This document shows, piece by piece, positions 41,375 through 58,884 of a stretch of 64,000 bases of DNA. The number at the start of each line of letters is the position of its first letter. The stretch's first letter is position 1. Made by a program: the position numbers and the translations under genes. The notes beneath the pieces are model-generated. The model searched no databases and had not been told where the DNA came from. It saw only the letters and a list, made by a program, of their open reading frames with translations. The stretch lies in the NCBI GenBank assembly GCA_043803105.1, contig JAZDKJ010000006.1:364222-428221 (forward strand), written 5' to 3'. The DNA is from Candidatus Woesearchaeota archaeon. Lineage in GTDB: Archaea; Nanobdellota; Nanobdellia; Woesearchaeales; JAZDKJ01.

Positions 41375-41920
41375 TTGCCAAGCTTTTTAAGGGTTTTAGA
41401 TACTCCGTCCTGCATGGAGAGGGCACCACAGCAAAAACCTAGCCGTGAGTTGTTGATAGAAAAATTCCTCCAGGACAACCAGTTTAATCTCGAAGATGTG
41501 ATATCCAAGGACGAGATTTTCCAAAGCGCGAATGACCTTGCTTCAGCTATATACAAGAAGAGACCATCATACATAACCTTCAAGGATTATAATTTAGGTA
41601 TAACAAGCAGGTTTCCACAGACACCAGAATTTGAGGTCATGATGCTTTACCAGGTCCACGAGACTGCTTTGAAGTTCAAGCAGCAAGGATACAACGAACT
41701 TAGCTGGAACCAGCTTAAATCAGCATACCTAAAAGTCCACTTACAATCAAGGCATGACGCTGCTGGACGCCATGCCAGGTACAACTCACATTTTCCAAAA
41801 GCCCCAAAAGAGTTTGTTAGAGGCAAACATCCTGTGCACAGCATGCTGCTTACCTTGGACAGCATGGCTGTAGATATACTCCTCCATTATGCCACTTTGC
41901 GAATATACAAGAAAAGATAG
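41375..41920 (+). CDS. hypothetical protein
   Basis: 181-aa ORF. The true start may be the ATG at 41414 (MERAPQQ). Confidence 0.45.
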   Translation: MPSFLRVLDTPSCMERAPQQKPSRELLIEKFLQDNQFNLEDVISKDEIFQSANDLASAIYKKRPSYITFKDYNLGITSRFPQTPEFEVMMLYQVHETALKFKQQGYNELSWNQLKSAYLKVHLQSRHDAAGRHARYNSHFPKAPKEFVRGKHPVHSMLLTLDSMAVDILLHYATLRIYKKR

Positions 41921-41926
41921 AAAATA

Positions 41927-42529
41927 TTGGTCTGGCAGAAAATATTAAATAGTTGCGTTTCAGGTTCATTGTTTATGGACAAGCTGGAACAGGCAGGTTT
42001 CTTCCAGGCAGCGCTTATCAATCTATTGCTTGGAAACTTTATACTTGGCGGGCTTCTGGCGTCGATTTTCTTTCTTTTCTTTGAAGCTATTATTGTGCAA
42101 TTTATTTGTATAGCATTAGTTGGCTTATACAGTGGTTGGCTGACAATCTCTGTGATGGCCGGCTTTGAAATGAACTCAAGCCAAAAAGTCCTTGCAGGAG
42201 CGCTTTGCCCTATTCCTGTTGTTTGCCTGTTATTTGTCGAGCAATTCATTTTCAGCAGGCTTGGAGCACAGCTTCAGATGCTTGGAGCCCCTGTGCAGAG
42301 CACTGCTGCATCAATTTCGAATATTTTTGGCCATCCCTCTCTGCAGGTCACCATTATCTTCATTTCTGTCTACTATCTTGCATTCAATTTCTTTGCGATA
42401 CGGGAGATTGACCGAGCAAAACAATTCAGTTCTTTAGGTTGGTACTCATTCGGCTTGATTTTGTTGACATTGATTGTTCTATTAGCAAGGTTCCTGGCTG
42501 CATCAGTCACCGGTGCCAAAGTGTCCTGA
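41927..42529 (+). CDS. polytopic membrane protein, hypothetical
   Basis: 200-aa ORF with about 5 TM helices. Confidence 0.5.
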   Translation: MVWQKILNSCVSGSLFMDKLEQAGFFQAALINLLLGNFILGGLLASIFFLFFEAIIVQFICIALVGLYSGWLTISVMAGFEMNSSQKVLAGALCPIPVVCLLFVEQFIFSRLGAQLQMLGAPVQSTAASISNIFGHPSLQVTIIFISVYYLAFNFFAIREIDRAKQFSSLGWYSFGLILLTLIVLLARFLAASVTGAKVS

Positions 42530-42569
42530 TTTGGCAACTTTTATATATTGAAGTTTGTGATAATGTGTT

Positions 42570-43121
42570 GTGCCAAGAAAAAAGAGGGTTGTTCAGCATA
42601 ATGTGCTTGAGTACCTATACATGATGATATTTATTGCCTCTGTTGCGCTGGTGGTATTTATCCTTTTTTCTGGAGGTCTTAGAGCAAAGTCAGAGGAGCT
42701 TCGCAGGCTTAAGGTGATTGATGATTTCAAGACCTCGCTTAACCTTGAGAGGCAGGCTTGCGGTTATAAGTGCGACACAGCCTGGTCTTCTGGCTGCGAA
42801 GAAGATTCTGTTGCCCAGTTCTGTTTAATTTCAGTAGAGCTCGATGTTGAGCACAATGGAAAGTTTGACTACAGTGAAAATATTATCCCGGGAACAGGCG
42901 TTTGCGAAGACAAGGTCTTTTGCTCCCAGCTTGTCAGTTGCGATTGTGTCCAAGGGATGAGAGAATGCATTGATTTCCTGTGCCATTACTGGAAGGAGAG
43001 AGACATGGACGGTTCCAAGGCATTGAACATGAACCTTGTTCCTGGCTCATGCGATTACCTTAACGAGCCTTTGCATTGGTACAATCAATTGAGAACCTCT
43101 GAAGGCTTGGCCTGCAGTTAA
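42570..43121 (+). CDS. membrane-anchored Cys-rich protein, hypothetical
   Basis: 183-aa ORF with an N-terminal TM helix followed by a Cys-rich ectodomain. Confidence 0.5.
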   Translation: MPRKKRVVQHNVLEYLYMMIFIASVALVVFILFSGGLRAKSEELRRLKVIDDFKTSLNLERQACGYKCDTAWSSGCEEDSVAQFCLISVELDVEHNGKFDYSENIIPGTGVCEDKVFCSQLVSCDCVQGMRECIDFLCHYWKERDMDGSKALNMNLVPGSCDYLNEPLHWYNQLRTSEGLACS

Positions 43122-43503: not shown

Positions 43504-44031
43504 CTAAGGTATTCTTCTCAATTGCCTGACAAGGTAATTTTGCGAGTCATCAGGCAGCTTATGTCTTGCCTCTTCCTGCACAATTGGCTTTGCCTCTTCT
43601 TTTTTGGCGAACGGATTCTCTGCCAAGGGCTTGAGGATAAGTTCTACAGTTGACATTTCCTCTTCGCTTAGCTGTTTCGTCTTCCACTCAAGGTTAAGGC
43701 CGTCGTTCTCCATCCTTGGTATTATCTGGATCGTGAAATGTGCGTACATTTGTCCAGCAGCAACTCCATTGTTGACAAGGATATTTGTGCCGTGCATGCC
43801 CAGGCTTTCGAACACTGAGGTTGATATCTTGTTTGCCATAACAAAGAGTTTTTCGAGCTCGTCGTCCGGCACCTGTTCGAGTATTGTATAATGCTTTTTC
43901 GGGAAGAGAAGTACCTGGCCTGGAGTGCTCGGTTTGTCATGGAGCACCGCCTTCATCATGTCATCTTCATAGACAGTGAATTCTGCCCTGCCCAAGGCAA
44001 GGTTGCATATTGTACAATCTTCTTTGTTCAT
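43504..44031 (-). CDS. HIT-family protein with degenerate histidine triad
   Basis: 175-aa ORF with an N-terminal CTIC. The triad position reads AHFTIQIIPR instead of HxHxHxx. Confidence 0.7.
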   Translation of the reverse strand: MNKEDCTICNLALGRAEFTVYEDDMMKAVLHDKPSTPGQVLLFPKKHYTILEQVPDDELEKLFVMANKISTSVFESLGMHGTNILVNNGVAAGQMYAHFTIQIIPRMENDGLNLEWKTKQLSEEEMSTVELILKPLAENPFAKKEEAKPIVQEEARHKLPDDSQNYLVRQLRRIP

Positions 44032-44657
44032 TTGAATAGTCTGCTTATTGAGTCAAGGTCTGTTTGCCCGGCATCTGTTTTAGCAGGTTTTTCTGCAGGT
44101 TTTTTCTCTTCTACATGGCTCGTTTCTCTTTTTGCAGGCAGTTCCTCAGTTACCATATCCTTCACTCCCAAGATTTCATAGAGCCGCTTCTTTATCCTTT
44201 TCTGCACTTCATGCATGTCGTTTGCAGTCATCTGCTTTGCGGGAAGCTTGAACTCGATTCCATCGTCTGCCATTCTCGGTATGACATGCATCATGAAGTG
44301 CTGCGCCTTCTGGCCTGCCACTAATCCGTTGGCAATAAATACTGTGGTTCCTCCTGCCTTAAGGCCTTTCAAGATTGCGTTTGACAATCCCTTGGCTACT
44401 CTGGAGAGTTTTCCAGTAGTCTTGTCTGGGATCAAGGGCATTATTGCGTAATGCTCGTTTGGTAATAGCAAGATGTGTCCAGGATTTGCAGGATTGATGT
44501 CAAGGACTGCAGTGCAGTCATCGTCTGAGAAAAGCTTTCTTGATTGTACCTTGCTGGAAATTATTTGGCAGAAAATGCATTGCTTTTTTTGGAACTCCTT
44601 GAGCTCTTCTGGAGACATGTTCTTGATTTTTTCCTCATACTCCTGCTGCGGGTCCAT
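44028..44657 (-). CDS. HIT-family protein with partial histidine triad
   Basis: Internal start MDPQQEYEEK... (44657) of the ORF-track ORF 44028..45026. Contains CIFC and a triad position reading QHFMMHVIPR. Acidic/Lys-rich C-terminal tail. Confidence 0.7.
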   Translation of the reverse strand: MDPQQEYEEKIKNMSPEELKEFQKKQCIFCQIISSKVQSRKLFSDDDCTAVLDINPANPGHILLLPNEHYAIMPLIPDKTTGKLSRVAKGLSNAILKGLKAGGTTVFIANGLVAGQKAQHFMMHVIPRMADDGIEFKLPAKQMTANDMHEVQKRIKKRLYEILGVKDMVTEELPAKRETSHVEEKKPAEKPAKTDAGQTDLDSISRLFK

Positions 44658-44712
44658 TATTCTTTTGTCTTCCGAAGAAACTATAAAAATGTTTCCAGAA
44701 AGAATTAAATAG

Positions 44713-45504
44713 GTGGATTCCGATTTTCGGGTTATGGTTGAAATAAAGCTTGACCTGCGAAAATCGGTTGAAGAGAACGCTGGGCTACATTTTGAGAAAG
44801 CGAAAAAGCTAAAGAAAAAACTTGTTGGTGCAAAGGCAACAGTTGAGCGCGTCAGAAAAGAGCTTGATAGGTTTGAGAAAAAGGAGCTGGCTGCTGTTGA
44901 GCTGCCTAAGGTCGACAGGAGAAAACAATGGTTCGAAAAGTTCCGCTGGTTCTTGAGTTCAGAGGGTTTTCTTGTGGTTGGCGGCCGCGACGCAACTACC
45001 AACGAAATAATAATCAAGAAGCACACGGAGCCTGAAGACCTTGTTTTTCATACTGACATGTCAGGCTCTCCTTTTTTCGTTGTTAAGGCTGATGGAAAAC
45101 AACCTGGTGTCCAGACCTTAAGGGAGGCTGCAGACGCCACTTTTTCTTTTAGTCGCAGCTCAAAGACAGGTATGACCACTTCTCCTGTTTTTTACGTTAC
45201 GCCTGCTCAGGTCTCAAGGACTCCTAATCCTGGTGAGTCATTGCCTAAAGGCGCTTTCATCATTCGTGGCAAGACCAATTACATAGAAAACAAGTTTAAT
45301 GTTGCTGTCGGTATCTATAAGGGAGCTGTTATGGCTGGCCCGCTTGAAGCAGTGCAGAAGCATTGCGAAAAATATCTCCAATTGATTCCTGGGGAAAAAA
45401 AGCCTTCTGACATTGCAAAGATGGTTAGGAAGCTTATTGGTGGAGAGCTTGATGAGATAATTAGGGCTCTCCCCAGTGGCAACTGTGACCTGAAGAAACC
45501 TTAA
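44713..45504 (+). CDS. NFACT-R (DUF814) domain protein, short form
   Basis: 263-aa ORF with FEKFRWFLSSEGFLVVGGRDATTNEIIIKKH...DLVFHTDMSGSPFFVV. The start may be the ATG at 44734. Confidence 0.7.
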   Translation: MDSDFRVMVEIKLDLRKSVEENAGLHFEKAKKLKKKLVGAKATVERVRKELDRFEKKELAAVELPKVDRRKQWFEKFRWFLSSEGFLVVGGRDATTNEIIIKKHTEPEDLVFHTDMSGSPFFVVKADGKQPGVQTLREAADATFSFSRSSKTGMTTSPVFYVTPAQVSRTPNPGESLPKGAFIIRGKTNYIENKFNVAVGIYKGAVMAGPLEAVQKHCEKYLQLIPGEKKPSDIAKMVRKLIGGELDEIIRALPSGNCDLKKP

Positions 45505-46063
45505 CACTATCTCCTTTTCTTGCAATATAATGGTAGTTCACATAGAGTTCAACGTTCGTTGCATTCACACCGAGGCCGTTGTGCACCATGATTAATCCAC
45601 TCTTCTCGATTTCTCGCCTTAACGTTCTTGCTTGCCCAAGGTAGGAGGGAATATCAATTGCAAGCTTTAAGAGTCTTCCCCTTTCTCTGAATTCTCTCAT
45701 TGGTCTCATTGGAACGTCTCCGACAAGGTAGCCTCCCGGTTTCAGCACTCGTGCTGTCTCTGTAAAAAGCATGTTCCTGTCATGAACCAGGTCTGCAAGA
45801 TATCCCTGAACCACAACGTCGATGCACTCATCCCTAAAGGGGAGGCGCAGCGCATCTCCTGCAACCGCATCCTTTACAAGCAGTGGTTTTTGCTCTCTGT
45901 AGCAAAGGTCGAGTGCGATAGTCTGTCCTGATGAAGCCAAGTGAAGCGAGCTGTCCAAGGCAAAATATCCAGCTCCAAGGTCAAGCATGCTCTTTGATTC
46001 TAGTTCAGGCACAAATGCCAGAAGCGTCCTGTGGTCATACAAAATCATGCCATGTTGTTCCAT
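45461..46063 (-). CDS. class I SAM-dependent methyltransferase
   Basis: 200-aa ORF with LDLGAG and VLKPGGYLV motifs. Confidence 0.7.
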   Translation of the reverse strand: MEQHGMILYDHRTLLAFVPELESKSMLDLGAGYFALDSSLHLASSGQTIALDLCYREQKPLLVKDAVAGDALRLPFRDECIDVVVQGYLADLVHDRNMLFTETARVLKPGGYLVGDVPMRPMREFRERGRLLKLAIDIPSYLGQARTLRREIEKSGLIMVHNGLGVNATNVELYVNYHYIARKGDSVKVSSGHSCHWGEP

Positions 46064-46206: not shown

Positions 46207-47511
46207 ATGAAAGTCCTTATTGTAGGTTCAGGAGGTCGGGAGCATGCTCTGGCCTGGAAAATAGCCAAAAGTCCGCTGGTTTCTAAGGTATATTGTGCTC
46301 CAGGTAATGACGGAATTTTGCAGACGCCAAAGGCAGATTGTTTCTCAGAAATCAAGGCAACAGATATTGAAGGCCTTGTTTCCCTGGCGAAAAAGAAAGG
46401 TGTTGATTTCACTCTTTTTGGTCCTGAAGATTCTTTGGTCAACGGCGCCTATGACAGGTTCAGGAAAGAAGGCCGTCTTGCTTTAGGCCCTGATAGCTGG
46501 GGAGCTGATATTGAAGGCAGCAAAGCCTGGACAAAGGACTTGATGCAAAACTATGGTATACCTACTGCCTTTGGCCAGTCAACCTCAAGGATTTCACAAG
46601 CTAAGGATATTGCCAAGGAATTTGTGCAGCATTATGGTGGTGTAGTTGTCAAGGCAGATGGGCCTTGTGGCGGAAAGGGAGTTTTTGTATGCAGAACCTT
46701 GCTTGAAGCCATTTTAGCCATAGACCGGATTATGGTCAAGCGAGTCTTTGGCCCTGCTGGAAAGCGAGTTGTCTTGGAAGAACTGCTTGTTGGCGAGGAA
46801 GCATCATTCATGGCATTGGTAAACAGCGTCGAAGATTATATCTTGCCTTTTGCTTCATCGCAAGACCATAAGAGGCGTGATGATGGAGATAAAGGCCCAA
46901 TGACCGGCGGCATGGGTGCTTATTCGCCTGCGCCTGTAGTAACACCTGTAATTCATAAAATGATAATGAAAGACACCTTGTACCAGACTATGCGCGCTAT
47001 GGCTCAGGAAGGCAGGCCTTATGTTGGGGTCATGTATGCTGGCCTAATGATAGTTAAAGGAAAACCAAAGGTGCTGGAATTCAACTGCCGCTTCGGAGAC
47101 CCAGAGATCCAGCCAATACTAATGAGGATGAAACCTGACATTATGCCTTTGCTCATTGGCTGTGCAGAAGGCAACCTCAGAAAACAGACGGTTGAATGGT
47201 ACGACGACGCTGCGGTCTGCGTAGTTATGGCCTCAAAAGGTTATCCTGAATCAGAGCAATTGAGAGGCCAGCAGATTCACGGCCTTGAGGATGTTACACA
47301 CATGGAAAATGTCTATGCCTTCCATGCAGGCACTGCTTACAAGAATGGTGTTTGGACTAATAAGGGTGGCCGTGTCTTAGGTGTAACTGGCAGAGCGCCC
47401 ACCATAAAGGAGGCACAAGACCTTGCCTATGAAGCAGCCAAAATGATTACATTCAATGGTGCTCATTATCGCACTGACATAGGCAATAAAGCAATCCAGA
47501 AAACAGTCTAG
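46207..47511 (+). CDS. purD: phosphoribosylamine-glycine ligase
   Basis: 434-aa ORF: MKVLIVGSGGREHALAWK...NCRFGDPE. Confidence 0.93.
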   Translation: MKVLIVGSGGREHALAWKIAKSPLVSKVYCAPGNDGILQTPKADCFSEIKATDIEGLVSLAKKKGVDFTLFGPEDSLVNGAYDRFRKEGRLALGPDSWGADIEGSKAWTKDLMQNYGIPTAFGQSTSRISQAKDIAKEFVQHYGGVVVKADGPCGGKGVFVCRTLLEAILAIDRIMVKRVFGPAGKRVVLEELLVGEEASFMALVNSVEDYILPFASSQDHKRRDDGDKGPMTGGMGAYSPAPVVTPVIHKMIMKDTLYQTMRAMAQEGRPYVGVMYAGLMIVKGKPKVLEFNCRFGDPEIQPILMRMKPDIMPLLIGCAEGNLRKQTVEWYDDAAVCVVMASKGYPESEQLRGQQIHGLEDVTHMENVYAFHAGTAYKNGVWTNKGGRVLGVTGRAPTIKEAQDLAYEAAKMITFNGAHYRTDIGNKAIQKTV

Positions 47512-47550
47512 TATTGCGAATAACAGAAAAGCAAGTTAGAGGTATCTCAA

Positions 47551-48504
47551 GTGTCTGATAAACTGTTGCTGATTGGTATGGGTTCGCCTAGTGATTTGAA
47601 GCATTTTGAAAAGCCTTATGCAAGCCTTGACGGCACCATCCCGGAATATCTCTTAAAAAAGGGTGTGAGACTATATTTGAGCCCTGGCACAGGAAAGCCT
47701 CTTGTTACCTCAATACATCGCACCACTGATACAGCAATGAAATTTGCAGATTCTCTTGATAGCTTGGTTGCTATAGAAGGAAGAAATGACAGGTTTGTTG
47801 CCTTATTGTTTGGCGGGCTTGCTTTTCATCTTGGTGGGGCTTTTGCTGGAAAGAATCCTGCAATACCGACGATTGTAGCTGCGATGGATGAGCATGCCTT
47901 CATGAGCGCCTATGCTATGCCTAAAGGAACTCCGGTTGGATTGGTTGGAGTCAACCAGCTTGACAAGGCTGTGATGATGGCAACTAAGATTCTTGACTAT
48001 AACGATTCTAACCGAGCATGGATCATACACCATCATTTCACCAATCCTCCATCGACTGATAGGGAGCATCTCGTAAAGTCTTCATATGATGCTGCCACTC
48101 AGCTTCTGCAAAAGTGCAATGTTTTGTCTTGGGCAGTTGAATTTATTTTTGTCGCGCAGAAGAAATATAAAGGTGTTTCATTAAGCCTGCCAGCGCTGCC
48201 ACAAACCGCAATAGAAATGGACAAGAGGTTAATTTTGGGTTCTGTTTCGTTTGTCAATCCTGCTGCGTTAAGTCCTTGCACCACAGGTCAGTATCAGACC
48301 CTCATGGATGTTGCTGGTCAGCTCAAGAACTCTTTGCTGGTCCATGACCCTTACAACGCAGCCCTTTTTACAATCCAGGTTATCGCAAACAAGTATCCAG
48401 ACTTACGTCTTGGGCTTGACAGGATAAAGGAAGAATCGAGGCTGCCGACTGCGAAGGGTGGGTATTCTCAGTTTTTGCCAATAAAAAAGGATGATTTCAA
48501 GTGA
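47551..48504 (+). CDS. purE: PurE-like (AIR carboxylase/mutase fold) protein, double length
   Basis: 317-aa ORF with a GTG start after an SD. Contains IGMGSPSD, TSIHRTTD, GGLAFHLGG and AMPKGTPVG, which are collinear with E. coli PurE motifs as recalled. The C-terminal half resembles a second, weaker PurE-like repeat. Confidence 0.6.
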   Translation: MSDKLLLIGMGSPSDLKHFEKPYASLDGTIPEYLLKKGVRLYLSPGTGKPLVTSIHRTTDTAMKFADSLDSLVAIEGRNDRFVALLFGGLAFHLGGAFAGKNPAIPTIVAAMDEHAFMSAYAMPKGTPVGLVGVNQLDKAVMMATKILDYNDSNRAWIIHHHFTNPPSTDREHLVKSSYDAATQLLQKCNVLSWAVEFIFVAQKKYKGVSLSLPALPQTAIEMDKRLILGSVSFVNPAALSPCTTGQYQTLMDVAGQLKNSLLVHDPYNAALFTIQVIANKYPDLRLGLDRIKEESRLPTAKGGYSQFLPIKKDDFK

Positions 48505-48515
48505 GGTGAAATAAC

Positions 48516-49796
48516 GTGGGCAGTACAAAAGATTTGGTTACTACAGGAAAGCTTGGTGAGCAATGGTATGCGCCTCCAACCGCTGTCAAGTTTGGTTATG
48601 GACCAATGCAGGTAAAAGGAACCTTCTCTGTGGCAGACTTAAAGAAGCTTATTCCTGAGTCTATCATAAAAAACAAGGCAGAAGCCCTTGCCATGCAGCA
48701 GGCAGCATTTGCAGAGTATCTGCAATATAATCACCCTGAGATCCCAAATTCCTATTATGGTATATTGGACAAAGATTTCAAACGTACTGACGTTCAGCAC
48801 TTGTTGTCTAAGGGAGAAACATCGAGCATCGTAGTCATGAAGCTTGCCCACACGCCAGATAGCTTTTGCGAAGGTAACCTTGATAAATATCGGGCTGCCC
48901 TGCAATCAGGAGAATTACAGTGCGGCGTTGCAGACGTGGAGTCAATCTTCAGGCTGGGCTTTCCGCTCGGCAGCTCGACTTTCGAGGATATTTTCAAGGC
49001 TGTCAGGTTAGGAGAAAAGTACGAGCATTTAGCCACTTACAATGAGACTGCGGCCGAACTCGACAAAATCAGGGCTATGGTTTCCGAGCAAGGTCTTGAC
49101 ATCTTCGAAGGTTTGGAGGAATTGCTTCAAAAAAAAGGCCTGGGCACCACTATTCCGAATCCAGGATTTGTCCTCAAGCATTTTGTTTATGATACAACCA
49201 CAAAATTCGTGAGTTACGGCGACCTTAAGATATCTGAGGAAGATGCTGAGAAACTTAGCGGCCTAAGCCATGAGAGTTATCAGCTCTGGAAGAATGACAT
49301 GTTCCCGAAGATTGCTGCTGCGCAGATAAAATTTTGCATGGAAAGGAACATATTCAATATTGATGGCAAGAGTGAAATCGTGGCATACCATCGCATGCCA
49401 GTTGTTGCCGACTTCCAATGCACTGTTGACGAAAACAGGGAAATGATAGTTGTGGCGGTTGACGGGGTTGAATGGCTGATTCCCAGCAATAAGGAAATAC
49501 AGCGGGCGATTTTCAGAAAAGAGGGAGTTTATGCAGCAAAGGCTGAGGCTTTAAGGCGGTCAGTAAAAGACAAAGGAGTCTTTGACCATTGGAAGGAGTA
49601 TTTTCCGGCTGTCATCAAGGAGCGAAAGATTGATTTGGTGGGTGTTACAGAATTCTCGTGTGATTTGATGGCAAATGCAATCATGGAAGTTGCCAACCGG
49701 ACTCTCGGCCATAGGGTGTTTGATGCAAAGCCGCTTGACTCGTGGGTTAGAGACTTTGTTCCTTATGCTAGTAAGTTACAAAGGCAAGGTGATTAA
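48516..49796 (+). CDS. purC: SAICAR-synthetase-like protein (divergent, long)
   Basis: 426-aa ORF with an N-terminal GSTKDL...FSVADL and a later IDGKSEIV...VADFQCTVDENR that resemble PurC motifs. Operon context. Confidence 0.5.
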   Translation: MGSTKDLVTTGKLGEQWYAPPTAVKFGYGPMQVKGTFSVADLKKLIPESIIKNKAEALAMQQAAFAEYLQYNHPEIPNSYYGILDKDFKRTDVQHLLSKGETSSIVVMKLAHTPDSFCEGNLDKYRAALQSGELQCGVADVESIFRLGFPLGSSTFEDIFKAVRLGEKYEHLATYNETAAELDKIRAMVSEQGLDIFEGLEELLQKKGLGTTIPNPGFVLKHFVYDTTTKFVSYGDLKISEEDAEKLSGLSHESYQLWKNDMFPKIAAAQIKFCMERNIFNIDGKSEIVAYHRMPVVADFQCTVDENREMIVVAVDGVEWLIPSNKEIQRAIFRKEGVYAAKAEALRRSVKDKGVFDHWKEYFPAVIKERKIDLVGVTEFSCDLMANAIMEVANRTLGHRVFDAKPLDSWVRDFVPYASKLQRQGD

Positions 49797-49798
49797 GA

Positions 49799-51751
49799 AT
49801 GGGGCATGTTTTGTTCGGTCGTTATCCAAGCAAGGAGATGAAGGAAATCATCGGTCCTCAACCCAAGGATTACAGGACGCTTTGCTCTCCTGATATGGAA
49901 AATATTTTCTCCAAGGAGTCAAAACATAATGGTTGGGATGACGTTTGGTATGCCCATATGAAAGCACAAAAAGAAACAGGCCTGCCAATACCGCAGGAGC
50001 ATTTGGATGCCTTCCAAGTTATTCTACACAAGATTAATTATCAACGCATGGATGAGATTGAACGAATCCTGAAGCATGATGTTGATTCTGGCAGGAAGCA
50101 TCGTGCTGAAGAATTGGAGAAGGTGTTGGAAGGCTCTTCCGCATGGCTGCATGCTGGTGCAACTAGCTGCACGGTCACAGATAATCAGGAGCTTACTGCA
50201 ATGTATAACGGCTTGCAGCTCTTGGCAGACAAAGGATACAATCTCCTTAACAAGCTTGAGCGTTTTGATTCTGGTCTGATTGTTAACCAGCACAAGTCAG
50301 ATCTAGAATATGCCTTGAATATATTAGACAGCAGGATCAACAACTTCAAGATAAGAGGTGCAAAAGGCACCACAGGCACCCAGGCAAGCTATCTCGAGCT
50401 GTTTGATGGCAATGCAGAAAAGGTCAGCGCTTTCGAACAAGCCTTCATCCAAAGACTTGGGTTTGGTAGGGCATTCACGATAACCGGTCAGACCTATCCA
50501 CGGATTGCGGATTACCAGCTCGTATCAACCTTGGGCGTGCTTGCGACTGCGCTTTCAAACATTGCAGAGTACTCAGTCAGCTTTTCCGAAGAATTAGCTC
50601 ATCCTTTGTCTGATGTGAAGAGCTTTGCAAAAAGCGCTGCGCACATGGCATCCAAGCAGTGGTTGGAGCGAACACTAGATGACTCTGCCCAGAGACGGAT
50701 TATCATCGAAGATTCCTTCAAGGCAGTTGAGTATGTTCTGGATAGGCTGAACTCTGCAGAAATTAACCCGATAGAGATAAGGGACCCTGACTTTCAGCTA
50801 AGCCAGCCATTGTCAGAAACGCTTGAAGGCACTACAGGCAAGGCTCTTGAGCTGTTGCGTGACAAGACTGTGAATACAATTTTCAGAATTCACACATTTG
50901 CAGAGAAGTTCAAGGACCAGCCTTGCATGGCATACACTCATTATCAGGTTGCCCAGCCTACAACTGTAGGCAAGCGGCTTGACCTTTGGGCCTATAATTA
51001 TGTTTTGGCACTTCAGGACATTGAAGACTTTTTGGAGTCTGACAAGAACCTTGAAGTAAGCCAGAATATTGTTGAATATCGCATCGCCACACTGTTAACA
51101 CAGATTGCGGTTGCTGCCCATAAGCAAGCCGCAGATGTCAGGTTGTGCCAGCATGACGGGATAATGACTGAGCCTTTTGCAATTGGCCAAAAAGGTTCAA
51201 GTGCTATGCCTCATAAGCGCAATCCTATGAAGAATGAGCGCATCTGTTCTCTATCTACAGAGTTGATTCAGTATGCTGATTCCAATAATGCCAACCCTTA
51301 TAGCTTTTTGCTAGCTGACTCAGTCTTGAATCTTGCAATGGCTGTTTTTGTTGAGGATACTCCTAAACAAAAGGGCTTTACTGTTAACCCAGAGGTTATT
51401 GCAAAGAATTTCAGGGAATTTCTGCCATATATCTGCCTAGAGCAACTGGTTAACAAAGTGCTCAAGACAGGAAAATACAAGCGCGAGGAGCTGTATGACA
51501 TCGCTTACAATTGCTCAATACAGGCCCGAACCAATGTCGAGGTACACGGCAAGGCAAACAACACGCTTGAATTAGTGTGCGAATACCCTCAATTTGGGCT
51601 CACTCCAGAAATGATTCCTGCGATGCTTGATCCTATGCTCTATATCGGTCTAGCGTCAAAACAGGTAGAATTGTTTGGAAGGGTGCATGTGGACCCCTTG
51701 AAAGAGAAGTACAAATCTGTTCAGGCGTTAGAGTCTGACGTGAAAGTTTAA
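49799..51751 (+). CDS. purB: adenylosuccinate lyase (long form)
   Basis: 650-aa ORF with an N-terminal RYPSKEM and the fumarate-lyase signature GSSAMPHKRNP. Confidence 0.8.
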   Translation: MGHVLFGRYPSKEMKEIIGPQPKDYRTLCSPDMENIFSKESKHNGWDDVWYAHMKAQKETGLPIPQEHLDAFQVILHKINYQRMDEIERILKHDVDSGRKHRAEELEKVLEGSSAWLHAGATSCTVTDNQELTAMYNGLQLLADKGYNLLNKLERFDSGLIVNQHKSDLEYALNILDSRINNFKIRGAKGTTGTQASYLELFDGNAEKVSAFEQAFIQRLGFGRAFTITGQTYPRIADYQLVSTLGVLATALSNIAEYSVSFSEELAHPLSDVKSFAKSAAHMASKQWLERTLDDSAQRRIIIEDSFKAVEYVLDRLNSAEINPIEIRDPDFQLSQPLSETLEGTTGKALELLRDKTVNTIFRIHTFAEKFKDQPCMAYTHYQVAQPTTVGKRLDLWAYNYVLALQDIEDFLESDKNLEVSQNIVEYRIATLLTQIAVAAHKQAADVRLCQHDGIMTEPFAIGQKGSSAMPHKRNPMKNERICSLSTELIQYADSNNANPYSFLLADSVLNLAMAVFVEDTPKQKGFTVNPEVIAKNFREFLPYICLEQLVNKVLKTGKYKREELYDIAYNCSIQARTNVEVHGKANNTLELVCEYPQFGLTPEMIPAMLDPMLYIGLASKQVELFGRVHVDPLKEKYKSVQALESDVKV

Positions 51752-53220
51752 TGCGACCACTAAAAAACGAGCCTTCAAGGAGCTTGAAGGAGTACAGGCT
51801 TCTTACAGGCAGGACTACTGCTAAGACTGTTATGTCTTCTGTCAATCTCAGGACAAGACTCTGCACGAGTCCTAATGGCAAGGACTTTCTCTATCTGAAC
51901 ATTCCATTGATGAGCGCAGCAATGCAGGCTGTTTCAGGAACAAGGTTATCTGTTGCGCTTGCACAGTTTGGAGGCATTTCTGTTTTGCCGTGCTCTATTC
52001 CGGTTCAGGAGCAGGTTGCAATAATCAAGGAAGTGAAGCGCTTCAAGGCAGGCTTCCAGGAGGATGTGACAACCTTTTCCAAGGATGACCTGATTGCCGA
52101 TGCTGTTAAGGTAATGAGTACAAAAGGCTATCACACTTTTCCCATAACAGAAAATGGGAGATCGCACGGGAGGCTCCTTGGCATATTATCAGACAGGAAT
52201 TTTGACCCCAAAGAGCACGTAAAGAATAAGATCGAGAAACACATGGTGAAGAATGTTGTGACAGCAAGGGAGGGCATTTCATTGCCTGATGCAAACAAGG
52301 TGATGATAAAATACGGCAGGAGCATACTACCTATTGTTGACTCAAGGAAAAACCTACGATACGTTGTCTTCAAGAAAGACCTGGAAAAGCACAGGAACTT
52401 TCCTGATGAGCTCGTCGACCATAACAAGCGCTATATGATCGCTGCAGCAGTCTCGACCTTGCCTAGTGACCACTCAAGGATTGATGCCCTGATTAAGGCA
52501 GGAGTTGATGCCTTGATCATTGATTCCTCCGATGGTTTTTCTGATTTCCAAATTGAGACCTTGAGCTATATCCGTAATAAAACAAGGAAGATTCCGGTGA
52601 TTGGGGGAAATATAATCACTAAAGAAGGCTTTTTTCACTTGGCTGAAGCTGGTTTTGATGCAGTTAAGGTCGGAATGGGAATTGGTTCTGGCTGCACGAC
52701 ACAAGAGCAGAAAGGTGTTGGTCGAGGCCAGGCTTCTGCCTTGATTGATGTCTGCGCTGCTCGCGACGAGTTTTATTCAAACACCAACAGATATCTTCCA
52801 ATAATTTCTGATGGCAGCATTTCAAATCCTGGCCAGATTGTAATTGCCTTGGCTCTAGGCGCAGATTCTGTCATGATGGGTCGGTTCTTTGCCCAATTCT
52901 CCGAGTCTGAAGGCGGTGTGAGGAATCATCCTCAATACGGTCCATTGAAAGAATTCTGGATGGAAGCCTCTGCCAGGGCGAGGAGTTATGGCCGCTATGA
53001 AACCAAGCCAGAATTCTTTTTTGAGGAAGGTGTCGAAGGCTATGTTCCGCACATTGGATCAATCTATGATAATCTCGGCCAGACTTTGATCAAGATAAAG
53101 TCTGCCTTGTCCAATGCTGGCTGCAAGAATATAGATGAATTGCACAAGACTGCAGTGCTTGAATTGCAATCAATAGCATCATTGCAGGATGCTGCAGTGC
53201 ATGATATTATAACTAAGTGA
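51751..53220 (+). CDS. guaB: IMP dehydrogenase (with CBS pair)
   Basis: 489-aa ORF with IDSSDG, GIGSGCTTQ and ISDGSI motifs, plus a CBS insert. Confidence 0.85.
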   Translation: MRPLKNEPSRSLKEYRLLTGRTTAKTVMSSVNLRTRLCTSPNGKDFLYLNIPLMSAAMQAVSGTRLSVALAQFGGISVLPCSIPVQEQVAIIKEVKRFKAGFQEDVTTFSKDDLIADAVKVMSTKGYHTFPITENGRSHGRLLGILSDRNFDPKEHVKNKIEKHMVKNVVTAREGISLPDANKVMIKYGRSILPIVDSRKNLRYVVFKKDLEKHRNFPDELVDHNKRYMIAAAVSTLPSDHSRIDALIKAGVDALIIDSSDGFSDFQIETLSYIRNKTRKIPVIGGNIITKEGFFHLAEAGFDAVKVGMGIGSGCTTQEQKGVGRGQASALIDVCAARDEFYSNTNRYLPIISDGSISNPGQIVIALALGADSVMMGRFFAQFSESEGGVRNHPQYGPLKEFWMEASARARSYGRYETKPEFFFEEGVEGYVPHIGSIYDNLGQTLIKIKSALSNAGCKNIDELHKTAVLELQSIASLQDAAVHDIITK

Positions 53221-53230
53221 GGTGTCATAA

Positions 53231-54643
53231 ATGGGTTTTTCAGAATTGGTGTCAGGTAAGCAGACAATTGCTATTGTTTGCAATCAATGGGGTGATTCAG
53301 GCAAGGGAAAGTTTGTCCACTTGTTTAGCGAGTGGGCTGACATTATCGCACGTGGTACTGGAGGTCCGAATGCAGGTCATACTGTTGTAATAAACGACAA
53401 GACATACATCTTCCACACGATCCCTTCTGGAATTTTGTATGACTGCGCTGGAAAGACTAATGTGATGGGACCTGGAATGGTTATTGATTTGAAAGGCCTT
53501 GGTGAAGAGTTGGACACGCTTGACAAAGAGCGTGCCTCATATAATCACTTGGTTATCAGCAATGCAGCAAATGTGATTTTGCCCCAGCACAAGATTCGAG
53601 ATGGTGCTGCTTTCGCATCCATGGCCAAAGGGTCTGTTGGTTCAACCGGCCGAGGCATCGGCCCTTGCTATGCTGATGCGACTGCCAGAACAGGAATTAC
53701 CTTAGCAGATCTGTTTGACAAAGATATATTGGCAAAGAAATTGAGGGAAAACCTCAAGAACTATCCTGATTTGGTTGACAAGCTAGACGTGGACGAGATT
53801 ATTGAAGAGCAGCTCAAACATTTTGAAAGAATAAGACCTTTTGTCCGCGAAACGCATTATCTTATGAACGAGTCCCTTGCTGCAGGAAAGAAGATCCTCC
53901 TGGAAGGTGCACAGGGATTATTGCTGAGCATAATGTTTGGTACCACACGATATCAGACCAGCTCTGATTGCTCTATTATCGGAACAGCTCAAGGTGTAGG
54001 CCTGAATCCAGCAGTCGTTGACTTAACTCTTGGGATAGTCAAGGCACCTTATATGACTCGTGTTGGCAACGGCCCATTCCCTACTGAGTTTGGAGGAGTA
54101 CTGGCTGAAGAGTATTGTGCAGATGTGAGCCACAACAAGAAGGTTGAACTGGCAAATTACAATCTTGAAGCGCTTCTACGCTCTCCACGCGAGTTCGACC
54201 AGGGGTTATATGCGAGAATTAAAGGAAATGAGTATGGGGCCACCACTGGCCGTCCAAGGAGAACCGGATGGATTGACTTGGTTGCCCTTCGCTATGCTGC
54301 CATGATTAACAAGAGCGCAAAGGCGAAAAGGGCTGATGTTATCATAACAAAGCCCGATGTGATGGATGAGTTTGACAAGATAAAATTATGTGTTGGCTAC
54401 ACCCTTGGGGGTGTGATCACCACCAGGTTCCCGCACCGTTCTGAACTGCTTGAACAATGTGCACCTATTTACGTAACCATGGACGGGTGGAAGACCCCAA
54501 TAAGCGACTTCAGGGATTACAATGAAATAAAGAGGAAAGCGCCAAACCTTGCCAACATTCTGTTCTTCATTGAAGAATATGCTGGTGTTAATATCAGGAG
54601 CGTATCTGTTGGCGCTGATAATGACCAAACAATCTTTAGGTGA
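53231..54643 (+). CDS. purA: adenylosuccinate synthetase
   Basis: 470-aa ORF with QWGDSGKGKF, GPNAGHT, TGRGIGPCY and GATTGRPRR motifs. Confidence 0.92.
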   Translation: MGFSELVSGKQTIAIVCNQWGDSGKGKFVHLFSEWADIIARGTGGPNAGHTVVINDKTYIFHTIPSGILYDCAGKTNVMGPGMVIDLKGLGEELDTLDKERASYNHLVISNAANVILPQHKIRDGAAFASMAKGSVGSTGRGIGPCYADATARTGITLADLFDKDILAKKLRENLKNYPDLVDKLDVDEIIEEQLKHFERIRPFVRETHYLMNESLAAGKKILLEGAQGLLLSIMFGTTRYQTSSDCSIIGTAQGVGLNPAVVDLTLGIVKAPYMTRVGNGPFPTEFGGVLAEEYCADVSHNKKVELANYNLEALLRSPREFDQGLYARIKGNEYGATTGRPRRTGWIDLVALRYAAMINKSAKAKRADVIITKPDVMDEFDKIKLCVGYTLGGVITTRFPHRSELLEQCAPIYVTMDGWKTPISDFRDYNEIKRKAPNLANILFFIEEYAGVNIRSVSVGADNDQTIFR

Positions 54644-54652
54644 GGTGTAAAA

Positions 54653-55426
54653 ATGCAAAAAACTTTAATGGATGTTTTAAAAGATTTTCCCTATCTAGGG
54701 AGGTTTGTTCTTATAGGCGTTGACCTCACAGATACATTTAATTTTATAGCCTGTGGCATCCAGGGTCGAAGCCCGCCAAGTAGAGAAAGGTATTATGAAG
54801 AAAGCACTGACAGGAAGACTCTCTCTGTAAAACCTCTTGCGTATGACAAGATGGTCCGTGAATTCCAGGGAGGCAACCTTAGCGCCAATCCAGAACTTCT
54901 GTTATACAATGTGATAAAAGCTCACCTGACCGGCGTTGCAGTCAGCAACGGAAAACAGACTGATTCGATTGCTGACCTTATACAACCTGGCCAAAAGCCA
55001 AAATCCATTCTTGAAAGAGGCTTATCCAATTGGAGTTATGAATCTGATCCTCCAAATAACACTCCAAGAGTTAACGGGGTGGTGAATGATAATCAGGCAT
55101 GCTTGGCAATTCTGAAAAAGGACAAGGATGGATCACGATTGCCACTATATTTTAACGTCCCGATGACAAGAGGCAGAGGCATGTTACTCCCAACTTATAC
55201 AGGGGTTAATATGAATCCTCTTCCTTCGTTTCAAGGCGAGCCTCTGGAATTGGAGCTCACTGCCACAACCCCAACTGAGATGGTGCTTATGCTTTATGGT
55301 GCCTTAGTGCCACAGTCAGGAGATGATTTACGCGTTGCTGTCGGAGCAATGTTCCAGAACAGGATGGACTTTTCCACAATGCTCTACAGCAAGAGCCGTT
55401 ACGAAAAACCAGTCGAGGTGAAATAA
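54653..55426 (+). CDS. purO: IMP cyclohydrolase, archaeal PurO type
   Basis: 257-aa ORF with YLGRFVLIG...GRSPPSR...AVSNGKQTD...TPR, collinear with PurO as recalled. Confidence 0.7.
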   Translation: MQKTLMDVLKDFPYLGRFVLIGVDLTDTFNFIACGIQGRSPPSRERYYEESTDRKTLSVKPLAYDKMVREFQGGNLSANPELLLYNVIKAHLTGVAVSNGKQTDSIADLIQPGQKPKSILERGLSNWSYESDPPNNTPRVNGVVNDNQACLAILKKDKDGSRLPLYFNVPMTRGRGMLLPTYTGVNMNPLPSFQGEPLELELTATTPTEMVLMLYGALVPQSGDDLRVAVGAMFQNRMDFSTMLYSKSRYEKPVEVK

Positions 55427-55427
55427 G

Positions 55428-56891
55428 ATGGCAGCAATGCGAGAAGAGAAGCAGAAGTATTTCAACAGGATGCAGGATAATTTCCCGCAAGCACTCCTGG
55501 TTGGCTTCGCTGATTTGGATGCATCCAAAATACTGGCTGTCAACGTCTCACACCTCAACCAACATGGAGAAACCATAGAGACGACTCTCCAGCCATTAGC
55601 CTACCGCAAAGTGACTTGGACTCTTCCTAATGCAAAAGGTGAGTTGGAAGAGATGGGTTTGCGTTACGGAGACAATCCTGACCAAAAATCTGCTATGTTC
55701 AAATTAGTGGGAGGAAATCTTGCTCTTGCAGCCTGTAAGTTTGTTGGAGCAAATAACGGGCTTGTAAGTGCAATAACTGAGGCTGACATGATCCAAGCAG
55801 GTAAGCATCCAGGTAAAACAAACCTTACTGATGTGGATTCCGCGCTGAATATACTTAGGTATTTGGGTGAAAAACCGGCATGCGCTATAATGAAGCACAA
55901 CAATCCCTCCGGCTTAGCCTATGGAGGTTCTTCTGAAGTGACAGGTGCTGCCTTCGGGTCTGACGTCTCCGAAGCATACAGGAAGGCAAATGATGCTGAC
56001 AGGATAGCTGCTTTTGGTGGGGCTGCTGTTTTCAATAAGCCCATAGATACAGTCACAGCAGAAATGATTAATCGCAATTACCTGGAGGTGGTCTGTGCCC
56101 CGGACTTTGAAAGAGGTGCTGTTGAAATCCTTAAGGGTAGGAAGAACTTGAGAATAATTCGCTTGGACAATATCAATCGCCTAGAGAATTATTCAACCAC
56201 CCAGATTATTGATTTTAAGGCATTGATGGATGGTGGGTTCATAGTCCAGGAGTCCCAGGTGAATAAGGTTCGTTCATTGGCAGACCTGAAAAGAGCCAGT
56301 CACAAAGGTTATCAGACAGAACGGTGGCCCCCAGACCCCAACGAAGTTAGGGACATGATTTTTGGTGTGGCAGTAGAGTGTGGGGTTACATCAAACTCTG
56401 TCCTTTACGTTAAGGACGAAACAACAGTATCTGTTGGGACAGGTCAGCAGGACAGGCTTGATGTTACAGTCTATGCCATAGCTAAAGCGTATAGAAAGCG
56501 CCGTGACAGGGAATGTTTCAAAGAGTTTGGTATTCCCTATCCAGCGCTTGAAACAATGATATTTCACAAAGAGCAAGGCATAGACAGGGATTATGGAAGC
56601 ACTGCGGTCAATAACGCTAACCTGAACGGAGTTGGTATGCTAAGAGAGTGGAAAAAAGAGATAGATGCAAGAGTCAACAGTATACATGGTGGATTGATTG
56701 GCGCGACAAAGGTTTCAGACGCTTTCTTCCCTGAGCCTGACGCCATCGATTACTCGCTTATGGAATTCATTTCCGCAGTTGTGCATCCCGAAGGTTCGGA
56801 TAAGGATTGGGCTACCATTGATGCCTGCAATAAGGCTAAGCCGAGGCCAGTTATTGTGGCGCATACAACTCAGAGATTGTTCAAGCACTGA
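55428..56891 (+). CDS. purH: AICAR transformylase (PurH AICARFT domain only)
   Basis: 487-aa ORF with LRYGDNPDQ, MKHNNPSG and AAFGGAAVFN motifs. Confidence 0.85.
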   Translation: MAAMREEKQKYFNRMQDNFPQALLVGFADLDASKILAVNVSHLNQHGETIETTLQPLAYRKVTWTLPNAKGELEEMGLRYGDNPDQKSAMFKLVGGNLALAACKFVGANNGLVSAITEADMIQAGKHPGKTNLTDVDSALNILRYLGEKPACAIMKHNNPSGLAYGGSSEVTGAAFGSDVSEAYRKANDADRIAAFGGAAVFNKPIDTVTAEMINRNYLEVVCAPDFERGAVEILKGRKNLRIIRLDNINRLENYSTTQIIDFKALMDGGFIVQESQVNKVRSLADLKRASHKGYQTERWPPDPNEVRDMIFGVAVECGVTSNSVLYVKDETTVSVGTGQQDRLDVTVYAIAKAYRKRRDRECFKEFGIPYPALETMIFHKEQGIDRDYGSTAVNNANLNGVGMLREWKKEIDARVNSIHGGLIGATKVSDAFFPEPDAIDYSLMEFISAVVHPEGSDKDWATIDACNKAKPRPVIVAHTTQRLFKH

Positions 56892-56893
56892 GA

Positions 56894-57850
56894 ATGTTAA
56901 ACAACAAAACCCTCGAGTCAGCCCTGTCAATACTTGGCTCTCTTGGTCCAGGACCTGCCTGCCTTATCTATAATGATGGCATGCTCTCGAGTGCTGCATG
57001 CAGCATTTCTGCTGCTGACGCTTTCGAGAAGGCTCGTGATAGTTGCTGGACAGGAACCATTGCAGGCTCTGCATTCTTCAACAGGCCTCTGTGCTTGGAC
57101 ACAGCTAAAATGATTGAAGAGACTGATCTTCTTCAGGTGTACGCTCCTTCATTTGATGATAAGGCAGTGAAGGTTTTAGAGAAGAAGACGATGGTTCCAA
57201 TAAACCTCAATAAAGCGCCAAACACAATTCAACTAATTTGCTTGAATAAGCGGAATAGTCAGTTGCGCACTTCTTTTTCTGCTCAGCAAAATGATTTGTA
57301 CTTGGCCATTGCGTGCATGCAAGATACGCCATCCCGTGCCCTGGTATTAGCCAAGGAAAGCAAGACTGCCGCGATTGTTGCGTCTGAAACACTGGAGGAT
57401 TGTGCTTTGCTTGCGTTGAGGGACGCAGGGAGAAACTATAAGAACATGATTTGTTACAATGATTACCATCTCTCCTATGACTTTCTTGAAAGCAGCATCT
57501 CCTGCGTCGCCCTCAGAGTGATTACAGAGCCAGAGGCAATTGCCAAAATTGAGGATATACAAGCAAGGAGTAAGATCATTGGTGGTGCTGTTAAGGTAGA
57601 AAAGCTTAGTGTAATGGACACCATAAACAAGCTTGCCAATCAAGACAGGTCGGGTCTTAATTACGCTGTTGCAGTCACCAAATGCGAATTTGACATGGCC
57701 ACCCTTAGCTTTCTTGCTGACAAAGGCATAATTGCTGTGGCACAGCCAAGCCATAATCCTGAGATTGAAAAAGGATGCCGTAAATTAGACCTTACTTTGT
57801 TGCTCTATCACATTAATGAAAAGCCAAAATGCTGCGAGGTGCGAATATGA
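56894..57850 (+). CDS. AICARFT-like paralog lacking the KHxNPxG motif
   Basis: 318-aa ORF. AADAFEKARDSCWTGTIAGSAFFNRPLCLDTAKMIEE...VYAPSFDDKAVKVLEKK aligns with the PurH core, but the position of the KH.NP motif reads IYNDGML. Confidence 0.6.
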   Translation: MLNNKTLESALSILGSLGPGPACLIYNDGMLSSAACSISAADAFEKARDSCWTGTIAGSAFFNRPLCLDTAKMIEETDLLQVYAPSFDDKAVKVLEKKTMVPINLNKAPNTIQLICLNKRNSQLRTSFSAQQNDLYLAIACMQDTPSRALVLAKESKTAAIVASETLEDCALLALRDAGRNYKNMICYNDYHLSYDFLESSISCVALRVITEPEAIAKIEDIQARSKIIGGAVKVEKLSVMDTINKLANQDRSGLNYAVAVTKCEFDMATLSFLADKGIIAVAQPSHNPEIEKGCRKLDLTLLLYHINEKPKCCEVRI

Positions 57851-58884
57851 ATGATAAAAAAGAATTTATGACTTACAAAGGTTCAGGTGTGGATGTTGAA
57901 AAAGGTGAGGCTGTTGCAAAAAATCTGGAGGAAGAATTGGGCTCGACTCTTAACGACCATGTGGTTCCAGGAAAGTCTGGATTCAAGAGGTTTTGGAGGG
58001 ACGAAAATCATACTTATGTTGCAGGTGCTGACGGTGTTGGAACAAAGCTCAAGGTTGGATTCTTGCTAAAAAAGATTGACACTGTAGGCATAGACCTGGT
58101 TGCAATGTGCATTAACGATATTGTCAGGGTGGGTGCAGAGCCAATGTTCTTTCTTGATTATCTTGCTACCGGTAAATTGGATGAAGGTGACCATCTTAAG
58201 ATTGTCAGTGGAATCGTAGAAGGCTGCAGGCGTGCAGGGGTTCCTTTGCTGGGAGGCGAGACTGCTGAACTGCCAGGGTTCTACTCGCCTAAAGAATTTG
58301 ATCTTGCAGGTTTTGCAGTTGGCAGAGCGAAACACCAAGATCTGATTGACGGCACCAATATAAAGGTTGGGGCTGCGCTTTTAGGCATTGAGTCATCAGG
58401 CCTGCACAGCAATGGCTACTCTTTGGCGAGAAAGGTGCTTATGGAAAAGCTAGGCCTTGGAATGTTTGATTATGTGGCCAAGCTTAGGTGCACAGTTGGA
58501 CAAGAGCTGATAAGGTCAACCATCATCTACTCCAAGCCAGTTCTTGATCTACTGAGTCACTTTCCTGGCCAGGTTCAGGGAATGGCTCATGTTAGTGGAG
58601 GAGGTATGCCAAACAAGGTTCCAAAATGTTTTCCTGAAGGCTGCGGCGCAGTCATAAATGAGGGCAGCTGGCCTGTGCATCAGATTTTCTCGTACATTGC
58701 AGAGAACGGCCCAGTTGCACCTGAGGAAATGAGAAGGACCTTCAACATGGGTATTGGTATGGTTATGGTAATAAACGACAAGGGTGTGGTGCCAGAGATA
58801 TCTTCGCTTTTGTTGGAAAGCCACAAACTCAAGAGTTATGACATAGGCAACATTGTTGCTGGCAGAGGATTGCAGTATATCTAG
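57847..58884 (+). CDS. purM: phosphoribosylformylglycinamidine cyclo-ligase (AIR synthetase)
   Basis: ATG at 57847 after a GAGGTG SD, with an ATGA overlap with the previous gene. Contains YKGSGVDV, DGVGTKL and GGETAE motifs. Confidence 0.92.
   Translation: MNDKKEFMTYKGSGVDVEKGEAVAKNLEEELGSTLNDHVVPGKSGFKRFWRDENHTYVAGADGVGTKLKVGFLLKKIDTVGIDLVAMCINDIVRVGAEPMFFLDYLATGKLDEGDHLKIVSGIVEGCRRAGVPLLGGETAELPGFYSPKEFDLAGFAVGRAKHQDLIDGTNIKVGAALLGIESSGLHSNGYSLARKVLMEKLGLGMFDYVAKLRCTVGQELIRSTIIYSKPVLDLLSHFPGQVQGMAHVSGGGMPNKVPKCFPEGCGAVINEGSWPVHQIFSYIAENGPVAPEEMRRTFNMGIGMVMVINDKGVVPEISSLLLESHKLKSYDIGNIVAGRGLQYI

Follow-up and report, generated by a model that had tools for sequence, protein, structure and literature searches.

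A compact purine biosynthesis operon with remodelled enzymes in a Woesearchaeota archaeon

Here, we analysed a window of 64,000 nucleotides (positions 364,222 to 428,221 of contig JAZDKJ010000006.1, assembly GCA_043803105.1) from a metagenome-assembled genome (MAG) of Candidatus Woesearchaeota, a DPANN archaeon, in which a co-directional operon of purine biosynthesis genes occupies positions 46207–58884 of the plus strand. The ten open reading frames (ORFs) that an initial annotation, made from the sequence alone, had placed in this region are all present at its coordinates, with products of 434, 317, 426, 650, 489, 470, 257, 487, 318 and 351 amino acids (aa). The names it gave to these genes are right overall, as judged by hidden Markov model (HMM) scans and, for the PurC-like product, by structure. 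We assign a probability of about 0.72 to the reading that this is a real operon of an ordinary pathway, in which remodelled enzymes carry out canonical chemistry and the steps missing from the window are encoded elsewhere.

All ten genes lie on the plus strand. The first, purD (46207–47511; 434 aa), encodes the glycinamide ribonucleotide (GAR) synthetase of step 2; its product contains the GARS_N, GARS_A and GARS_C domains and scores 473.9 bits against TIGR00877 (cutoff 288). Next come the genes for a double-length PurE-like protein (47551–48504; 317 aa), matched by the AIRC Pfam profile with 47.5 bits (cutoff 30) over residues 8–154 only, for a long PurC (48516–49796; 426 aa), that is, a phosphoribosylaminoimidazole-succinocarboxamide (SAICAR) synthetase assigned by structure, and for a long PurB, or adenylosuccinate lyase (ADSL; 49799–51751; 650 aa), which matches TIGR00928 with 217 bits in five separate stretches. 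They are followed by guaB (51751–53220; 489 aa; PF00478, 290 bits), the inosine monophosphate (IMP) dehydrogenase gene, whose product also carries a CBS pair, and by the adenylosuccinate synthetase gene purA (53231–54643; 470 aa; PF00709, 430 bits), which narrowly exceeds the NF002223 cutoff (403.4 against 402 bits). The archaeal IMP cyclohydrolase gene purO (54653–55426; PF07826, 98.3 bits against a cutoff of 28.1) encodes 257 aa and is thus longer than its 199-position NCBIfam profiles. The last three genes encode a PurH that consists of aminoimidazole carboxamide ribonucleotide (AICAR) formyltransferase (AICARFT) only (55428–56891; 487 aa; PF01808, 183 bits), a truncated AICARFT paralog (purH-like, 56894–57850; 318 aa), which matches PF01808 marginally (30.9 bits against a cutoff of 25), and the aminoimidazole ribonucleotide (AIR) synthetase PurM of step 5 (57847–58884; TIGR00878, 346 bits against a cutoff of 236).

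The genes are tightly packed, as had been noticed, with junctions of 39, 11, 2, −1, 10, 9, 1, 2 and −22 nt when the purM start is taken as first called; guaB begins within the purB stop codon, the overlap being 1 nt, and the PurE-like and PurC-like frames begin with GTG. The statement that almost every gene is preceded by a GAGGTG Shine–Dalgarno (SD) sequence proved exaggerated, since the exact hexamer precedes six of the ten genes, among them purM only with a revised start, but the enrichment itself is real, with six of the 20 GAGGTG occurrences on the plus strand of the whole window standing before operon genes. Exact copies lie 5–7 nt upstream of purD (5 nt before its ATG), the purC-like gene, purA, purO and purH; the purE-like gene (AGAGGTA) and purB (AAGGTGA) have near matches, and neither an exact nor a near match was found upstream of guaB or the purH-like gene. 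Because a GAGGTG at 57836–57841 lies 5 nt before an ATG at 57847, which overlaps the TGA stop of the upstream gene in an ATGA arrangement, purM probably starts there rather than at 57829, that is, 18 nt further downstream, giving a product of 345 instead of 351 aa. Translational coupling within the operon is real. Near it, Rfam detected neither a riboswitch nor any other regulatory RNA, and a promoter and terminator scan used bacterial-type models, which are uninformative for an archaeal host.

On the strength of the HMM and structure identities, the operon encodes steps 2 and 5–10 together with both enzymes of the IMP branch point, as the initial annotation proposed. PurD would make GAR and PurM would make AIR, which the double-length protein resembling PurE-PurE′ would carboxylate to carboxy-AIR (CAIR), the window having no PurK, an absence shared by the genomes of many archaea (PMC3261824). 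The long SAICAR synthetase and adenylosuccinate lyase would then lead from CAIR to AICAR, and a folate-type AICAR formyltransferase and the archaeal PurO from AICAR to IMP, from which GuaB on one side and PurA with PurB on the other would branch towards GMP and AMP. The unusual lengths would reflect lineage-specific remodelling of these same enzymes, with no added catalytic domains.

The window contains none of purF, purN/T or purL/Q/S, in agreement with what had been observed: tblastn with the PurL, PurQ, PurN and PurK of relatives gave no match within the 64 kb, and Pfam scans of essentially all window ORFs of at least 150 aa outside the larger called genes found no purF, purN/T, purL/Q/S or purK. 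Two explanations had been offered, namely that the missing genes are encoded elsewhere or that extra domains or paralogs supply their activities. The canonical genes of relatives make the former likely, whereas the latter found no support. We consider it quite probable that steps 1, 3 and 4 (PurF, PurN or PurT, and PurL/PurQ) are encoded by ordinary genes elsewhere in the genome. The presence of purD and purM, neither of which is known to serve any purpose but de novo synthesis, is an argument that the organism has steps 3 and 4 as well.

For comparison, we examined the genomic neighbourhoods of long PurC in about 25 relatives (loci numbered with the prefix L). Canonical PurL (~1000–1125 aa) and PurQ are encoded in eight of them (L002, L011, L012, L013, L015, L024, L025 and L026), a PurN-type formyltransferase in three (L012, L024 and L025), and long PurE-like genes (293–345 aa) lie within the PurL/PurQ clusters of four (L011, L013, L024 and L025). 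The closest relative with a complete chromosome (L024; OY970338.1, 1.84 Mb), whose PurC is 61% identical to that of the window, has the order PurL-PurQ-PurN-long PurE-PurA-PurC-PurB, followed by AICARFT, 5-formyltetrahydrofolate cyclo-ligase and FolD. Since long PurC and PurE thus stand beside canonical PurL, PurQ and PurN, the extensions are not replacements for steps 3 and 4.

Gene order in the clade is otherwise very fluid. In L029 and L030, a trio of long PurE, PurC and long PurB occurs without other pur genes within 10 kb, the same genes form a trio in L001, and L004 has only the pair of PurC and long PurB; possibly, the trio is a self-standing module that can be retained whether or not the rest of the pathway is. 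In L029 and L030, the pur genes are followed by SRP54, which in L001 is found ~5 kb downstream. A conserved protein of 483 aa adjoins PurL, PurQ or PurB in several loci (L002, at 14849–16300, and also L011, L014, L018, L020 and L026). Although Pfam gives it no significant match, faint AIRS and AIRS_C signals (E = 8e-4 and 5e-3) make a long, highly divergent PurM its probable identity.

An organism truly devoid of steps 1, 3 and 4 might instead run a partial pathway on an intermediate (AIR, AICAR or ribosides) taken up from a host or the environment, with purD and purM as relics or in the service of some other purpose. Such a state would be expected of a host-dependent DPANN archaeon, the general pattern in this group being one of loss, with genomes that often lack complete purine pathways (PMC6349945; PMC8421398), and it would be in keeping with those relatives that have only the trio or pair module and no other pur gene within 10 kb (L004, L029 and L030). 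Moreover, no PurF was recognised in any of the ~25 neighbourhoods, and a motif hunt in the relatives' loci for an N-terminal cysteine combined with a phosphoribosyl pyrophosphate loop returned only GlmS and one 716-aa ORF in L018, so that step 1 is undocumented even in relatives. However, both purD and purM are intact genes with translational coupling and with scores over their equivalog cutoffs, and without steps 3 and 4 neither would be of use; PurL, PurQ and PurN are present in close relatives; and the window covers no more than 64 kb of a contig that has at least 542 kb (542,637 bp). We therefore regard a partial pathway as unlikely, though it is the main rival of the reading given above.

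The lengths that first drew attention to the operon hold up, as do the E. coli sizes set against them, with 317 aa compared to 169 for classical PurE (1qcz), 426 compared to 237 for PurC (2gqr) and 650 compared to 456 for PurB (PRK09285 profile). That the long proteins are artefacts of assembly or gene calling (fused neighbours, frameshifts or wrong starts) might be suspected from the purM start, probably first placed 18 nt too far upstream, and from the GTG starts of the PurE-like and PurC-like genes. Nevertheless, the NCBI annotation has the same products of 426, 650 and 318 aa, 23 long PurB and ~98 long PurC proteins are found at full coverage in independent NCBI, JGI, ENA and Logan assemblies, and the AlphaFold2 (AF2) models of PurB and PurC are confident along their whole length. 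With full-length homologs conserved in this way, the artefact explanation is effectively refuted, and its residual likelihood is negligible. HMM and structure analysis of the extra segments indicates that the extensions are lineage-specific variants without added catalytic domains.

PurB is the clearest case. Its extra 160–200 aa repeat the central helical (five-helix) domain of the protein itself, and the chain is laid out as D1 (~1–120), D2A (~123–319), a linker (320–344), D2B (345–516) and D3 (~531–650). When compared with human ADSL, the protein does not align collinearly as a three-domain enzyme would: in a first pass, residues 28–154, 182–249 and 282–318 correspond to ADSL 24–146, 195–262 and 323–359, and in a second pass, residues 349–409, 427–490 and 525–646 correspond to ADSL 130–190, 252–315 and 363–483. 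A database search yielded 23 full-length homologs of 608–698 aa from Woesearchaeota, Aenigmatarchaeota and Nanoarchaeota, after which the next matches are canonical enzymes of ~476 aa that cover only half of the query. The canonical ADSL profile runs through all 23 long proteins in the same non-collinear, two-pass pattern, large parts of it being matched twice in P0103, P0109 and P0114; a tandem duplication of the central domain therefore gave rise to the family. The AF2 model has two sets of five long helices (ten central helices); superposed rigidly on a canonical monomer, it fits over only 305 residues (2.1 Å), and the global Foldseek template modelling (TM) score is 0.33.

The two copies have kept different parts of the catalytic machinery. 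D2A retains the substrate-binding motifs GTTGTQAS, QTYPR and WLERxLDDSxxRR and lacks the His hairpin and the signature loop, whereas D2B retains the catalytic His hairpin (H381) and the GSSAMPxKxNP loop (S467) and lacks the GTTGTQAS excursion. Across the 23 sequences, H93, T122, S123, Q231, R291, S296, R299 and R300 are invariant in D1–D2A, as are T380, H381, G466, S467, M470, K473, N475, P476, E480 and R481 in D2B; the signature loop reads GSSAMPHKRNP (residues 466–476), and T380-H381 align with the human THFQPAQ segment that contains His159. The active site of ADSL combines domains from different protomers, and His159 and Ser289/290 serve in it as acid and base (PMC6301967). One long PurB chain would accordingly mimic two protomers, and a dimer of such chains would stand in for the usual tetramer but contain two complete active sites in place of four. 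Whether PurB is indeed a single-chain pseudo-dimer that builds a two-site pseudo-tetramer seems to us a matter of even odds, going by the motifs and the predicted fold. Compared to human ADSL (eukaryote-type, PDB 2J91/5NX8; fumarase/aspartase superfamily), which has ~480 aa, the window protein with its 650 aa thus has the central helical domain twice per chain, with complementary loss of catalytic loops. A full-text literature search found no report of an adenylosuccinate lyase with a duplicated domain, and as far as this search showed, the architecture is undescribed.

The identity of the PurC-like protein had to come from structure, because searches of the PDB sequences were empty, even with its family profile as query. 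It has no Pfam match, PF01259 included, and a weak NCBIfam match only (NF010564/PRK13959, 29.9 bits), while some members of its family carry precomputed PF01259 matches; there are 98 homologs, the full-length ones having ~402–453 aa. The top 38 PDB matches of its AF2 model (predicted local distance difference test score 94.8) are all SAICAR synthetases or PAICS, each with a Foldseek probability of 1.00, and nothing else matches; the TM score on the target is ~0.4–0.76 at ~12% sequence identity. As modelled, the protein is a SAICAR synthetase fold with helical additions. It shares this fold with the long yeast and mycobacterial SAICAR synthetases (PDB 1OBD and 6YX3), and it shares the position of its gene between purE and purB; it differs by ~130–190 extra, mostly helical residues. 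Long PurC is also found in bacteria of the candidate phyla radiation (Berkelbacteria and Saccharibacteria; L019, L021, L022, L023 and L028) at ~40% identity, which suggests transfer between ultrasmall archaea and bacteria.

The PurE-like protein comprises a PurE core (~1–156), a divergent region of ~110 aa and a PurE-type C-terminal helix (268–296); PurEs in the PDB align to residues 52–160, and residues 268–296 match their C-terminal helix. An exhaustive search of 1.84 billion representatives showed that the family is rare (24 clusters, mostly of 290–336 aa). The core contains GSPSD (11–15) and SIHRT (54–58), which we take to be the counterparts of the GSxSD loop and of the S-A-H-R-T loop with the catalytic histidine in PurE; G11, S12 and S54 are invariant, H56 is nearly so, and the P-rich loops are conserved in the alignment. 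Although the window protein itself yields one AIRC match plus the PurE-like C-terminal helix, it aligns with PurE343 of L001 and with P0243, each of which has two AIRC stretches. The PurE assignment is further supported by P0227 (672 aa), a fusion of a PurE-like protein (AIRC, 5–164) and PurC (SAICAR_synt, 362–612) that provides a Rosetta-stone link.

The double-length PurE-PurE′ of Methanobacteria, which lack purK, can complement purE as well as purK (PMC3261824). The window protein appears to fit this PurE-PurE′ type, with a strongly degenerate second half as far as sequence comparison can tell, and its extension would be the degenerate second domain of such a fusion. It shares with the proteins of Methanothermobacter thermautotrophicus and Methanobrevibacter smithii the double length, the lack of a purK nearby and a class-I-like PurE domain at the N terminus, in which the window protein has the SxHRT and HL motifs. 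By contrast, its second half is unrecognisable as PurE save for the C-terminal helix, so that the likeness is known via the two-domain proteins of relatives, and in one of these (L001), the two-domain form adjoins PurK, unlike PurE-PurE′ of Methanobacteria.

The last two steps are split in a manner known from other archaea. The PurH of the operon matches the AICARFT-only profile NF005492 (390 positions) at residues 74–487 and has the KHNNPSG motif, and it corresponds to the 'PurH1' of Brown et al. 2011 (PMC3261824). The archaeal operons with AICARFT-only PurH and PurO in that study contain the same enzyme set and the same split, with an AICARFT domain that lacks an IMP cyclohydrolase domain and a separate PurO. 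They differ from the operon described here in that the latter belongs to a DPANN Woesearchaeote, packs nine or ten genes into one operon, has long forms of PurE, PurC and PurB alike, and contains an extra, probably dead AICARFT paralog. An N-terminal extension of 73 aa in PurH (55428–55646) has no family match.

The only match of that paralog among 5.8 billion proteins is itself (V1837_04335). It aligns with residues 136–378 of the neighbouring PurH at 26% identity (E = 6e-12), and in this alignment, the Lys-His pair of the KHxNP motif, which is among the AICAR-contacting residues (PMC3261824), is replaced by a gap and a tyrosine. Judging from these features, the purH-like gene is a truncated local duplicate of AICARFT whose product is probably non-catalytic, while its intact reading frame suggests that it retains some role, perhaps as a partner subunit.

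These details bear on the idea of a non-canonical source for the missing steps, be it the extra segments of PurE, PurC or PurB or the purH-like paralog, for instance as a GAR formyltransferase of a new kind with an AICARFT-derived fold. The enzyme for this step is still unidentified in some archaea (PMC3261824), and an intact frame of 318 codons between purH and purM at only 26% identity implies some selection. However, the paralog has no homolog among the proteins searched and no Lys-His pair; the extra part of PurB is a copy of its own domain, that of PurC a helical decoration in a model that matches only SAICAR synthetases and PAICS in the PDB, and that of PurE resembles a degenerate second domain; and in relatives, canonical PurL, PurQ and PurN are encoded alongside the long PurC and PurE. 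Non-canonical supply of this kind is thus highly improbable. Hardly better are the chances that the organism has no PurF, PurN/T or PurL/Q at all and that steps 1, 3 and 4 are bypassed or performed by unrecognisable proteins; candidates would include action on GAR by the orphan AICARFT paralog, or the import of an intermediate that joins the pathway at AIR via the widely conserved DPANN trio.

The reading that we prefer, of canonical chemistry in remodelled enzymes with the missing steps encoded elsewhere, has several observations to contend with. Genes for steps 1, 3 and 4 are absent from the 64-kb window, their presence elsewhere in this MAG is something we infer, and the neighbourhoods of the relatives are likewise devoid of a recognised PurF. 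Several operon products fall short of their NCBIfam equivalog cutoffs: the PurE-like protein (42.2 bits, cutoff 149.6 of TIGR01162), PurB (217 bits, cutoff 326 of TIGR00928), PurO (55 bits, cutoff 158 of TIGR01922) and GuaB (469 bits, cutoff 585 of NF005493). The shortfall of PurB arises because its alignment is split, and the activities of all these members are presumed from their sequences. In addition, D2A and D2B of PurB show no significant similarity to each other (hhalign, E = 0.02), nor does the C-terminal half of the PurE-like protein show any to its N-terminal half in the same type of comparison; because of these non-significant results, the duplications are supported via canonical profiles and two-domain relatives and not via self-similarity. 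Finally, the proposed PurB pseudo-tetramer rests on motif bookkeeping and a monomer prediction, and it presumes a packing of D2A against D2B like that of neighbouring protomers.

Host dependence for nucleotides is presumed for most DPANN archaea. With its compact, almost complete purine operon, this Woesearchaeote stands among the more self-sufficient of them, in line with the near-complete purine pathways already reported for some Woesearchaeota subgroups (PMC8421398). Its lineage has repeatedly duplicated oligomeric purine enzymes (PurB, PurE and AICARFT), with at least one copy degenerating, and in PurB the catalytic elements are divided among two copies of one domain that belong to the same chain. 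Should the pseudo-tetramer model prove true, this enzyme would exemplify how duplication followed by complementary loss can turn a homo-oligomer into a fused pseudo-hetero-oligomer in nature, with a bearing on enzyme evolution and on how annotation pipelines score such proteins. The PurB, PurE-like and PurC-like proteins of the window are all under the NCBIfam cutoffs tested, and in NCBI they are named 'lyase family protein' or 'hypothetical protein'.

The archaeal, and specifically woesearchaeal, origin of the window follows from its archaeal marker genes (split RpoB, RpoA′, aIF5B, a NOG1-type GTPase, DUF655 and aRF1), from a tRNA detected by Rfam only, and from proteins that are 100% identical to those of a Candidatus Woesearchaeota archaeon MAG in NCBI, namely the PurC-like protein (MFH0978496.1, V1837_04305), PurB (MFH0978497.1) and the purH-like product (V1837_04335). 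A scan of GTDB genomes with PurB gave no match, so that this MAG and its near kin are not among the species representatives there. The tRNA (7433–7559, minus strand; Rfam, 54.6 bits) was missed by ARAGORN and spans 127 nt; as tRNA introns are common in archaea, it presumably contains one. Downstream of the RNA polymerase genes lie two large adjacent ORFs (8205–10154 and 10157–12328, both on the minus strand; 649 and 723 aa) that have no Pfam match even at E = 0.5. We considered them as a hidden PurL and rejected this, since they have no significant Pfam signal, AIRS included, and tblastn with the PurL of relatives did not match them. Three consecutive plus-strand ORFs at 41375–43121 (181, 200 and 183 aa), each without a Pfam match, may be tandem paralogs. 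Just upstream of purD, on the opposite strand, are two overlapping HIT-domain genes (43504–45026; 175 and 332 aa), followed by a methyltransferase gene (45461–46063, minus strand). Because HIT proteins act on nucleotide derivatives, a functional link between the HIT genes and the purine operon is conceivable.

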